Shown here: positions 12,998 to 23,521 of the stretch, piece after piece
Layout of the letters: every line of letters begins with the position of its first letter
How positions within the stretch are numbered: position 1 is the first letter of the stretch
Assembly: GCA_051382305.1 (NCBI GenBank)
Contig: JBBCAV010000177.1
Span: forward strand, 1 to 23,972
Source: Bdellovibrionota bacterium FG-2
GTDB taxonomy: Bacteria; Bdellovibrionota; UBA1018
Length of the DNA stretch: 23,972 nt
Direction: 5' to 3'
Translations under genes and position numbers: made by a program
Notes under the pieces: generated by a model
What the model saw: only the letters and a program-made list of their open reading frames with translations
What the model was told of the DNA's origin: nothing
Database searches by the model: none

Positions 12998-15697
12998 ATG
13001 GGTAGGTTGAGGCACACCTCTGTGTTTGCATGGATGATCGGGATATCCGTATTGCTACAAGCCCAAGCCGCATCCAACAAATGCATTCAGGATCTCAGTC
13101 CCCTGGCGCTCCCCGAAAAATCCCGCTTCGTATCGATGTCAAACGACGGAACCCGCATGGAGCTTTGCTCCGAAAATCAAATGGTTCTCATATTTGATAC
13201 ACAAACCCGCAAAACCTACACCACCGGCATCGGCTGTTTCAGTGGAGCAAAGAGCTTTTCTGCGGATTACTCCCGCGTTTGCGCGCGCTGGACGAATACC
13301 TTCAGCCTCAGATGCTATTCATCTGAAACGGGAAAAACTGAAGACATTAATATGACCGCCACAGGTCTTAATGCAGCTTTTCTTTCCGTCTCGGGCACAC
13401 AAGTGGATATCAAAGGTCACGGCGTACTCGCTTTTTTAAACGATGGAACTTCGGTTGCCTATTCTTTTAAAACTGGAAAATCCGTCCCTGCATCGGGCCC
13501 TTCATTATCCTATTCTCAGATTTTTACGCCCGCAGGTCAAAGTATCTCCTTCGACCAGGTCCAGTTCGTTACTCAAGATACAGAAACTGGAACTAAGACC
13601 ACCCAATCAAAAGAGGATCTCATTAAGGCCTGTGGATTGACCAAAGGAAGTTTTGCACGTTTTACTGCTGGCCCGGGCGTCGTTATTGCTTCCGATGTAG
13701 CAATCTCGCACTGCTCACTTTCCGACGGTAAACTCCTTCAAAGTTTTCCGGTTCCACCTGATGGCTACGCGGACTTTAACAATTTTAGCAAAAGTCTCAT
13801 CATACGAGGCAAGACCGCAAAGGAGAGCCTTTGGTTTGATTTTGACGATCTTAAGAATCCCGCACGCCATTTTCCAGAAGACTTGGACTTGACCAAAGGG
13901 ATGGTTTCGGTTGAGGGCGGAAACCTCGTTCAATATATTGATAGTTCTTTTGGTGGGAAAACCGTTTGGACTCATGGCAAACCATTTGTTCCGCCACTTT
14001 CAAATCCCTACGTTCACGGTGACTATTGTTATGATTACGATGTATCAAACACCGTGCGTCGCATTGGTCATATTTGCTACTCAGGTGCACTCCAGATCGC
14101 CGAGGATCTTGTTTCCAGCAAGGCGCAGTGTCTTGCAGGGGATTCTAAAAATTCTCTCCCACTGGAGCCTAAGCCAGACAATATAGCCCGGAAGCTGCTT
14201 TGTGACAAACCCTACGCCGAGAAGGACTGGGACCTCGCTTTCCCGGATCTCTACGAATTTAAGAGCGGGAAGATCACTGCAAGCCAGGCTGAGGCACTCC
14301 TCCTTCGTTTTCAAAAGCCAGGCGCTCTGGACCTTGTAAAGGATGCAGAGGCCATCGTATCACTCTTCAAATCACAAGCCGTTAGAAACAACTACTCCAT
14401 CCAGGTCGGGGCCATTCTCCAAAACATTGCAGCGTCGAATCCTCAATTCTACTATAACCTTCTAAACGAGATTCCCGAGCTTCTTGCGCTCCCTCCCATT
14501 TCGACAAGAACTTCGCCCAGCTCACTGTGCCGAACCTCCGATGATGAGAAGGTTTTGTCGGACGGGCTGAACAAGAATATTGATTTTATCTTGGATCATT
14601 TTGGCGAAGACCCGGCACAACTTATTAGAGTGGTGCGCCCACTGATCGGTCATCTTGAGAAGGCAGATAGCCCTGAAGCCAAACGTTGGAGTGAGACGAT
14701 CACCAATGTCCTTCTTAAGAAGAGTCACGACGGAAAGGCGCTTGCGCCCTATGCCGAGCATCCGATTCCTTATGTAACCGACTGGGTAAAGGCACAGCTA
14801 TTTTCCACTCCCATCCCCGAGCGTTATGATGCTTTTCTTTCTGAGAGTGAAAAGCAGAGTCCGATCATTTTTGATAACCACGTAGTCGATCATAACCCAA
14901 ACCTAAAAAACTATTTTGGCTTTTATTTGAAGACGGTCAGTCCGCCTGCGACGGTATCGACTGTCTCATCGAGCGTCTCTTCGAACGTCTCTTGGACCCA
15001 CAACGACGAGATCAAAACTGCTACCCTAACCCCGCGCCAAATCCTTGACGAAAAGACAGAAAATGAACTGCTTGAAAAGGTCTGGGTACAGTTTCATGGC
15101 GTATCTTTTTCTAAATCGTCAACCTATATGCTCTCTAGCCTCACTCCAAAAGGACTTGAGACCATCAAGAAATACGGCCTAACCGCCGCTGAAGTTGCGG
15201 CTATTCGCGGCTATGGTCTCACCGATTACCTGAGGCTTAATCAGGGAATTAGAGACGGGGGCGAGGCAAGAAAACAAATCGAACCCTATCTTAAAGTCCT
15301 AAACCAAGGCTTAAGAAAACTTCCAAAATACGTAACTGAAAATCCAGAAGGACCTCCCCAATATGCCCCCACGAGCAAAGACACAGGTCCGGTACGACGA
15401 GGAACCACCCTCCCGCCAGGCGTTCTTCAGGACCACAAAGTGGGAGAGGTCGTGACCTATCCGAGCTACACCAGCACGTCCCTGGAGTTTGGATTTCCTT
15501 CCATTCATCGATTCATTATCTCGTCTAAATGTGGGAGAAACATCGAGGACCTCGCGAGCGTCGCCAGCGAGCGCGAAGTGTTGTTCCTTCCGGGCGCACG
15601 ATTTAAAATTTTGGATCGAAAAGAAAATGTACATAATCCAATGGTGCCTAATACTAAGCAAATTGAATTTATTATGAAGGAGGTCGATTGTGAGTAA
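12998..15697 (+). CDS. Secreted multidomain mono-ADP-ribosyltransferase (paralog A); C-terminal R-S-ExE ART domain
   Basis: Signal peptide ending AQA; Cys-dotted beta-rich N-terminal region; helical middle; C-terminal EVAAIRGY..LNQGIR..LRKLPKY..VRRG..YTSTS..GRNI..EREVLFLPGARFKI. Start moved to ATG 12998 because MGRLRHTSVF aligns with MAMHRHISVF of paralog B. Confidence 0.88.
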   Translation: MGRLRHTSVFAWMIGISVLLQAQAASNKCIQDLSPLALPEKSRFVSMSNDGTRMELCSENQMVLIFDTQTRKTYTTGIGCFSGAKSFSADYSRVCARWTNTFSLRCYSSETGKTEDINMTATGLNAAFLSVSGTQVDIKGHGVLAFLNDGTSVAYSFKTGKSVPASGPSLSYSQIFTPAGQSISFDQVQFVTQDTETGTKTTQSKEDLIKACGLTKGSFARFTAGPGVVIASDVAISHCSLSDGKLLQSFPVPPDGYADFNNFSKSLIIRGKTAKESLWFDFDDLKNPARHFPEDLDLTKGMVSVEGGNLVQYIDSSFGGKTVWTHGKPFVPPLSNPYVHGDYCYDYDVSNTVRRIGHICYSGALQIAEDLVSSKAQCLAGDSKNSLPLEPKPDNIARKLLCDKPYAEKDWDLAFPDLYEFKSGKITASQAEALLLRFQKPGALDLVKDAEAIVSLFKSQAVRNNYSIQVGAILQNIAASNPQFYYNLLNEIPELLALPPISTRTSPSSLCRTSDDEKVLSDGLNKNIDFILDHFGEDPAQLIRVVRPLIGHLEKADSPEAKRWSETITNVLLKKSHDGKALAPYAEHPIPYVTDWVKAQLFSTPIPERYDAFLSESEKQSPIIFDNHVVDHNPNLKNYFGFYLKTVSPPATVSTVSSSVSSNVSWTHNDEIKTATLTPRQILDEKTENELLEKVWVQFHGVSFSKSSTYMLSSLTPKGLETIKKYGLTAAEVAAIRGYGLTDYLRLNQGIRDGGEARKQIEPYLKVLNQGLRKLPKYVTENPEGPPQYAPTSKDTGPVRRGTTLPPGVLQDHKVGEVVTYPSYTSTSLEFGFPSIHRFIISSKCGRNIEDLASVASEREVLFLPGARFKILDRKENVHNPMVPNTKQIEFIMKEVDCE

Positions 15698-23521: not shown

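Follow-up and report, generated by a model that had tools for sequence, protein, structure and literature searches.

Two paralogous proteins of a Bdellovibrionota genome couple an R-S-E ADP-ribosyltransferase to a propeller-helical scaffold and are candidate exported effectors

The window analyzed here, meaning the whole stretch of DNA under study, is an entire 23,972-bp contig (C177) of Bdellovibrionota bacterium FG-2, a source genome that is 85% complete and divided among 433 contigs. Two genes on its forward strand, designated A (12998..15697, 899 amino acids) and B (20813..23521, 902 amino acids), encode diverged paralogues in which a signal peptide, a predicted β-propeller and a helical middle domain precede a C-terminal R-S-E ADP-ribosyltransferase (ART). 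An R-S-E ART on a Sec-exported propeller-helical scaffold appears to be a rare and new toxin-like architecture. We read A and B as modular ART effectors exported by the Sec pathway and a type II secretion system (T2SS), and we consider the chances of that reading to be evenly balanced. The preliminary description of the locus had proposed the propeller, the helical middle part and the R-S-E ART, and these elements stand; its view that the proteins reflect diversification of paralogues rather than swapping of C-terminal tips fails at the scale of the family, where the tip has been exchanged.

A and B align by BLASTP from end to end with 42% identity (388 of 916 columns, E = 0.0), and both open reading frames (ORFs) were found at the positions and with the collinearity described earlier. 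The frame of A begins at an ATG, an earlier ATG being possible at 12980, and that of B can be extended upstream to a TTG at 20744. The two proteins divide alike into signal peptide (residues 1–24 in A and 1–28 in B), propeller (25 to ~362 and 29–362), helical middle (~363–700 and 363–705) and ART (~701–899 and 706–902). Their N-termini, judged by eye, have the basic n-region, the hydrophobic core and the AQA before the predicted cut that are expected of the Sec signal peptides claimed for both, and in A the sequence reads MGRLRHTSVFAWMIGISVLLQAQA (12998..13069, predicted cleavage after AQA). Past the signal peptide, mean Kyte-Doolittle hydropathy stays below 1.4 in every 19-residue window of both proteins. 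There are 14 cysteines in A and 13 in B, forming 13 aligned pairs (residues 29, 57, 80, 95, 106, 212, 239, 360, 378, 402, 511, 845 and 898 in A numbering) and leaving only C344 of A unpaired. Every cysteine motif listed in the preliminary description (KC.Q, E.CS, R.CA,.C.SS, K.CG, HCSL, CYSG, LLC and LCRT) is present, as are the turns given as S.DGT and S.D.SR, which read SNDGT/STDGT and SADYSR/STDFSR. In 60-column windows, A and B are most alike around FQKPG in the middle domain (65%) and across the catalytic core of the ART (62–67%), and least alike (27–30%) where middle domain and ART join. The ratio of nonsynonymous to synonymous substitution rates (dN/dS) was of no help: synonymous substitutions have reached saturation (pS 0.745, with dS undefined in both the middle domain and the ART), and the whole-gene dN/dS of 0.14 is for this reason uninformative.

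The C-terminal ~200 residues of A and B are, by their sequence, an R-S-E ART of the cholera-toxin type and presumably a mono-ADP-ribosyltransferase. The catalytic R, STS and ERE reported earlier are intact in both: in A (domain at 15098..15694) as R801 (15398–15400), S826-T-S828 (15473–15481) and E858-R-E860 (15569–15577), and in B (22928..23518) as R808 (23234–23236), S833-T-S835 (23309–23317) and E865-R-E867 (23405–23413). Over the domain the paralogues share 50% identity. The ART of B exceeds the Pfam cut-offs for both PF03496 (35.6 bits, cut-off 23.4) and PF01129 (32.5 bits, cut-off 22.3). In a search of all PDB sequences, residues 728–876 of A matched 6dre_B/6drh_B (E = 5.3e-9) with the Arg, the S-T-S and the E-x-E aligned, and the sole further match of A was Vis (E = 0.059). 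The entry 6DRH is Tre1-Tri1 of Serratia proteamaculans, and Tre1 is described in the cited parts of PMC11606950 and PMC8120803 as an R-S-E enzyme that modifies Arg174 of FtsZ; the same parts give the E-x-E motif as typical of arginine-modifying ART toxins. In an alignment of 11 ARTs the Arg, the first Ser and the first Glu of E-x-E are invariant and the second Glu is nearly so. The Pfam matches of B, the Tre1 match of A and this alignment agree on an E-x-E-type R-S-E ART, as had been claimed, and the ART of A and B is probably arginine-specific. Word-indexed homologue searches with the whole protein and with the ART region recovered only A, B and a homologue on a contig of Bdellovibrionota bacterium FG-1 (G019), which has the ART type of scaffold. 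These three form a scaffold-fused clade marked by an insert of ~20 residues before the catalytic Arg and by the cysteine pair C845/C898 (A numbering), both absent from the small relatives of the clade.

Structural modelling supports the view that residues ~25–360 of A and B form a divergent WD40-type β-propeller, encoded in A at 13070..14083 and having about 7–8 blades, eight conserved cysteines and the A-only C344. An AlphaFold2 (AF2) model of A 1–710, built from a 63-sequence family alignment, has a mean predicted local distance difference test (pLDDT) value of 84.1 and a predicted template-modelling score (pTM) of 0.79, and its residues 28–361 contain some 30 short strands arranged in fours. 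Foldseek searches of the PDB with the propeller model gave at least 500 matches at E ≤ 0.001, with WD40 propellers at the top (ODA16, 5mzh_A, E = 3.7e-10; WDR5). When the top Foldseek chains (975) were realigned with VIA-align, 108 had Z ≥ 8 and the best 50 rows were all propellers, covering model residues 29–360; the best was the DPP-IV propeller 5yp1_D (Z 14.2, root mean square deviation (rmsd) 4.8 Å, 283 aligned, model residues 41–357). With a HMMER profile of A, B and G019 (residues 1–700) we also searched a set of 1.84 billion representative proteins in full (E ≤ 0.001), and profile positions ~45–190 matched 18 long proteins in several stretches each (E from 3.4e-15 to 6e-4); all four of those checked are nSTAND1+WD40 proteins. 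Among Pfam propeller families, none matched A at E ≤ 0.1, and B had only Fungal_lectin below threshold (14.1 versus 25.3 bits). The WD40-like propeller suggested earlier for the N-terminal ~335 residues, for which modelling and Foldseek had been named as the check, is borne out by the model, both structural comparisons and the profile matches. Relatives that share the middle domain also have Pfam-recognisable WD40 repeats at the same position.

The middle domain of A (14084..15097) is helical, as described before. Modelled alone from 57 sequences, residues 361–710 reached an AF2 pLDDT of 86.9 and a pTM of 0.82, with about fourteen helices between residues 370 and 602 followed by a small β-sheet (610–677). 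No Pfam family matched the domain at E ≤ 1. Foldseek returned no PDB match at E ≤ 0.001 (best 9q6a_A, E = 0.12), and VIA-align against 48,161 chains gave none at Z ≥ 5 (best 8sgh_A, Z 4.9, rmsd 8.0 Å, 189 aligned). The weak rows of these fold searches are generic α-solenoids, and the absence of a match is no proof of a new fold.

Among the genomes searched, this sparse scaffold family turned up in no phylum other than Bdellovibrionota. The HMMER pass gave 80 hits, made up of 55 unrelated representatives bearing the middle domain (E down to 3.8e-23 for non-ART members), A, B and G019 themselves, three pieces (P0007, P0008 and P0069) of a broken copy in the source genome, the 18 long WD40 proteins and one 759-residue protein aligned only to the N-terminal part of the profile. 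The middle domain is present in 26 of 401 sampled Bdellovibrionota genomes, and the 10 family proteins examined were all singleton clusters. A search for related loci with the three-sequence alignment returned the G019 contig and one weak hit, on a contig of an uncultured Planctomycetales bacterium (E = 2e-6, 85 residues). Full-length members with tips other than the ART are typically 900–1,100 residues long, with the middle domain at about residues 400–700. A hydrophobic, signal-peptide-like segment begins 33 of the 37 members of at least 850 residues. Pfam propeller repeats precede the middle domain in 22 of the 54 members scanned, none of which contains any other family at E ≤ 1e-6. Members of ~600 residues (P0023, P0024, P0026, P0046 and P0067) run directly from signal peptide to middle domain and C-terminal domain, so that the middle domain is the constant part and the propeller an optional module. 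The hallmarks of the middle domain in A are C360, C402, W411, FQKPG (438–442) and C511 (in LCRT). Counted as rows with the residue among family rows with any residue at that position, C360 is kept in 49 of 50, C402 in 53 of 55, W411 in 55 of 56, K440 in 53 of 57 and C511 in 56 of 58. Conservation across the family does not extend to the propeller cysteines of the two paralogues, in a region where the alignment is unreliable.

At the C-terminus of this scaffold the enzyme changes. The 53 C-terminal pieces fall into two clusters, one of 50 that share a domain with an invariant His and Cys (KEAHSDGDEK ... NTSCWS), also carried by the ~600-residue members, and one of three, A, B and G019, in which this His/Cys domain is replaced by the ART. 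Neither PDB sequences (best E = 0.6) nor Pfam (E ≤ 1) yielded a match to the His/Cys domain; a search of the Atlas gave a lead only, to the clan-CD peptidases CHAT, gingipain (C25) and C13 (template-modelling (TM) score 0.52–0.57). A third type of tip occurs in a relative from G006 (contig C9, locus L017:3041-6190), in which the same N-terminal and middle parts are followed by a ~480-residue tail with DUF3943 (76.9 bits). The N-terminal 700 residues thus do occur with other C-terminal domains, a point that the preliminary description had left to be checked. In the full HMMER pass the ART version of the scaffold was confined to the source genome and one other. A quick tree of the middle domain put A, B, G019 and a fragment from another contig of the source genome (C153) in one group on a very long stem (Shimodaira-Hasegawa-like approximate likelihood ratio test (SH-aLRT) 100, length 3.06), and in a tree of the ARTs the scaffold-fused members formed one group (96/94). 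Small signal-peptide-like ARTs of the same clade, of 163–350 residues (open frames up to 530), occur in five related genomes, with two more in the source genome. These observations suggest that the His/Cys tip was replaced by the ART in the lineage leading to A, B and the G019 homologue. With 50 of the 53 tips being the His/Cys domain, the ART is itself the swapped-in tip at family scale. The claim of paralogue diversification rather than tip swapping therefore holds for the local pair, which is a tandem duplication, and not for the family, with its 50 His/Cys C-termini and one DUF3943 tail.

The source genome holds further copies in various states. On contig C153 a scaffold-ART copy (43951–46234, reverse strand, locus L023) is spread over at least four frame segments, is interrupted by a TAA and a TAG and lacks any match to about residues 99–201 of A, which points either to a pseudogene or to faulty assembly. 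The 2.5-kb contig C225 (locus L024) carries two convergent ART genes: one at 1069–1995 on the forward strand, which encodes a 309-residue signal-peptide ART above the Pfam cut-offs, and one at 1988–2383 on the reverse strand, which is the C-terminal end of a further fused-type copy at the contig end and has Leu at the catalytic Arg position. A 163-residue ART on contig C317 ends early and has E-R-R instead of E-x-E. In the window itself, a 53-residue ORF (23508..23669, forward strand) that overlaps the stop codon of B codes for a signal peptide followed by the first propeller strand of a further paralogue, and then ends at a stop codon. Of 29 of its residues, 18 are identical to B 32–60, the first ~30 mature residues, and it looks like a truncated third tandem copy. 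Both the lesions of the C153 copy and this truncation may be due to assembly error. The most economical reading would be that ART-type genes were duplicated and then partly decayed in this genome.

Alternatively, A and B might not be toxic at all and might serve as structural or adhesive components of the surface or periplasm, or as regulators of the cell's own envelope proteins, with an ART that is an NAD+ glycohydrolase, degenerate or regulatory. That about 700 of 900 residues are conserved and have no catalytic part to play would suit such a role, as would the degenerate ART copies on C225 (reverse strand) and C317. A and B nevertheless keep every catalytic residue despite their 58% divergence, and the catalytic core is among their most conserved windows; duplication with decay of copies is, we infer, more typical of effector families. 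We regard a non-toxic role as improbable.

If A and B are ART effectors, the following course may be envisaged. They would be exported by Sec and would fold in the periplasm with formation of disulfides, and their release would plausibly use the T2SS encoded in the genome, where the secretin GspD scores 482.5 bits against a cut-off of 351.35. The propeller would provide recognition of a target or surface, and the ART, with NAD+ as its donor, would ADP-ribosylate arginine residues in proteins of a prey or competitor cell. A type VI secretion system (T6SS) delivery module (PAAR/VgrG/Rhs) was not seen in A or B, which have the signal peptide and propeller in that place, and TssC/VipB (PF05943) had no match in the 85%-complete source genome.

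Several observations weigh against this course. The ART of A stays under the Pfam gathering score (19.1 versus 23.4 bits). In the portions of the literature drawn on here, R-S-E ARTs with related motifs can modify nucleic acids or other residues, and for that reason the arginine specificity of A and B is only probable. The sequence evidence for the propeller is mixed: an hhalign comparison of the A/B propeller with the N-terminal regions of four relatives was weak (probability 19%, E = 0.0012), and that assignment consequently rests mainly on the model, the WD40 profile hits and the position in the protein. The trees are unrooted, so that it is distribution (50 versus 3 tips; many families across the phylum versus two genomes) that indicates which way the tip was exchanged. 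An ADP-ribosylhydrolase (PF03747) was not found in the 85%-complete genome, no conserved immunity-like neighbour stands beside family members in five related loci, and B is followed by the truncated paralogue in place of a small downstream gene. Finally, hydropathy and fold searches detected no hydrophobic or known translocation element in the middle domain, and entry into the target cytoplasm, the site of NAD+, is thus left without a proposed route. It is conceivable, and in our estimate quite unlikely, that a new self-sufficient delivery module is to be seen in the helical middle domain, with or without the propeller, and that this module carries tips such as the ART or the peptidase-like His/Cys domain from the periplasm into the prey cytoplasm. 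Were that so, predatory bacteria would have in A and B their first ADP-ribosylating toxins of the single-chain AB type, and the scaffold would be a new phylum-specific one for delivery.

The same lack of a translocation-like element in A and B favours a different site of action. A and B might stay outside the target cytoplasm and act extracellularly or in the prey periplasm, with the propeller recruiting the substrate; by analogy with vertebrate ecto-ARTs they could modify surface or periplasmic proteins, or merely hydrolyse leaked NAD+. We think this less probable than the reading favoured above, while giving it more weight than any other alternative. It would match a likely extracellular action of the His/Cys-type relatives, whose resemblance to clan-CD peptidases, a lead only, could mean activity outside cells. 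B and the 309-residue ART of C225 are above the cut-off for PF01129, the NAD:arginine ecto-ART family, the cysteine pair C845/C898 within the ART is confined to the scaffold-fused clade, and no conserved immunity gene was seen in the related loci. Yet the matches to PF01129 and PF03496 cover overlapping stretches and cannot tell one site of action from another, and Tre1, the nearest solved relative, acts on cytoplasmic FtsZ. NAD+, moreover, is normally scarce outside the cytoplasm.

Immediately downstream of A lies an ORF of 135 residues (15690..16097, forward strand) with a signal-peptide-like N-terminus of its own. It starts at a GTG, shares 8 nt with the end of A including its stop, and is a candidate partner or immunity protein. 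Its product has no Pfam family, no paralogue in the source genome and no relatives that we could find. A sequence junction, TGTGAGTA, is common to the ends of both genes (15686–15700 and 23508–23522): at A the 135-residue ORF starts at the GTG within it, and at B the remnant paralogue reads through the same GTG AGT codons. The start of the 135-residue ORF may descend from that of a former tandem paralogue. Its position and signal peptide raise the prospect of a polymorphic toxin-immunity system, in which A would be a Sec-dependent toxin used against kin or competitors, the 135-residue protein its immunity protein, and B an orphan or otherwise protected. Signal-peptide toxins with β-propeller repeats, and a Tox-ART-RSE tip associated with T2SS, feature in the cited part of Zhang et al. 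2012 (PMC3482391), and the C-terminal tips do vary across the scaffold family. Against this, the 135-residue protein lacks paralogue and family, a truncated paralogue and not a small gene follows B, all close homologues have the same tip with no short-range polymorphism, and the five related loci have no conserved small downstream gene. Nor does a Tri1-like immunity gene adjoin A or B, the flanking ORFs being without a Pfam family. A toxin-immunity pair at this locus is accordingly a long shot.

The remaining genes of the region offer few leads. In an apparent operon with A is a gene for an exported protein of 1121 residues (16141..19506, forward strand) with two hydrophobic segments (553–585 and 638–663). 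Its C-terminal ~390 residues correspond to recurring proteins of ~450–500 residues, with a match in 15 of the 61 genomes of taxonomic family f1 (the source genome counted); the protein has no family, and a word-indexed homologue search with its C-terminal domain was empty. Its sole lead in the Atlas, a weak one, was the polymorphic toxin SitA5 (score 0.82). Between the A operon and B stands a convergent gene for a 406-residue secreted protein (19510..20730, reverse strand) with a signal peptide and no family. Directly after the remnant paralogue, a partial DUF6788 gene (23691..23972, reverse strand; 44.9 bits, cut-off 27.2) runs to the contig end, and members of this family often adjoin mobile-element genes. 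Synteny of the A–B region with G001 and G019 is highly fragmented.

Three further genes of the window lie upstream of A. The product of a 96-residue ORF (9498–9788, forward strand) aligns solely to the central part of the short-chain dehydrogenase profile, and an ORF at 9919–10725 (forward strand) encodes a piece of hybrid kinase with HATPase_c and receiver domains and no HisKA; both look like gene fragments. At 11368–11955 (reverse strand) an exported protein of 195 residues, with no family, is composed of Lys/Ala-rich repeats that each have a C-x(9-10)-C pair, examples of the unit being KCDSFSANAKDIC, RCDDLSGNKKDVC and KCEQFAGDAKDQC.

R-S-E ARTs are among the best-understood bacterial toxins, and the carriers that bring them to their targets are few: binary B-components, modules of the type III, type VI and type VII secretion systems, Rhs cages and lectin fusions. 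Bdellovibrionota, for its part, is a largely predatory phylum. A search for publications that link Bdellovibrio with ADP-ribosyltransferases gave none on this subject, judged by title or abstract. If the scaffold of A and B is a delivery or targeting device, it would be a new one and would give a handle on how such a phylum attacks cells. If it is not, the family would still represent exported enzymes of an uncharacterised class, and its clean natural domain swap would be useful for dissecting it.

Of the solved structures, Tre1 of Serratia proteamaculans (6DRE/6DRH) comes nearest in sequence to the ART of A, and it has the same layout of R, S-T-S and E-x-E. The two differ in their setting: Tre1 belongs to a PAAR-repeat protein that the T6SS delivers, whereas the ARTs of A and B sit on a propeller-helical scaffold behind Sec signal peptides, in a genome where no TssC was found. 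Tre1 is paired with the immunity protein Tri1, of ADP-ribosylhydrolase (ARH) type, whereas no ARH was found in the source genome at its 85% completeness. The insert before the catalytic Arg and the cysteine pair set A, B and G019 apart from their small relatives as well. In overall design there is a likeness to the Sec/T2SS-dependent polymorphic toxins with β-propeller repeats and a Tox-ART-RSE tip that the cited part of Zhang et al. 2012 (PMC3482391) sets out. Shared with that class, as far as this part describes it, are the signal peptide, the repeat or propeller region and the exchangeable C-terminal enzymes, R-S-E ARTs among them; A and B depart from it in their unrecognised helical middle, a tip that is constant among close homologues, the lack of a demonstrable immunity gene and a family in which the usual tip is the His/Cys domain.

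Two single-chain toxins invite comparison by layout. Pseudomonas exotoxin A consists of a β receptor-binding domain, a helical translocation domain and a C-terminal ART of the H-Y-E (diphtheria) type. A and B resemble it in the order of a β-rich N-terminus, a helical middle and a C-terminal ART, and in Sec-type export and disulfides, an analogy of layout only; it is the working model behind the receptor- or target-binding propeller and the delivery-aiding helical part that the preliminary description put forward. Their ART is R-S-E and not H-Y-E, and their middle domain matches no solved chain at Foldseek E ≤ 0.001 or Z ≥ 5. In MTX, the mosquitocidal toxin of Lysinibacillus sphaericus, an N-terminal ART precedes a ricin-B-like or lectin-like binding part. 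Within the limits of the source passages, that ART is an arginine-specific R-S-E enzyme of E-x-E type (R97, S142, E195 and E197) that modifies Arg of EF-Tu. Like MTX, A and B join an R-S-E ART in one chain to non-catalytic, putatively binding modules; unlike it, they carry the ART at the C-terminus, behind the propeller and the helical domain.

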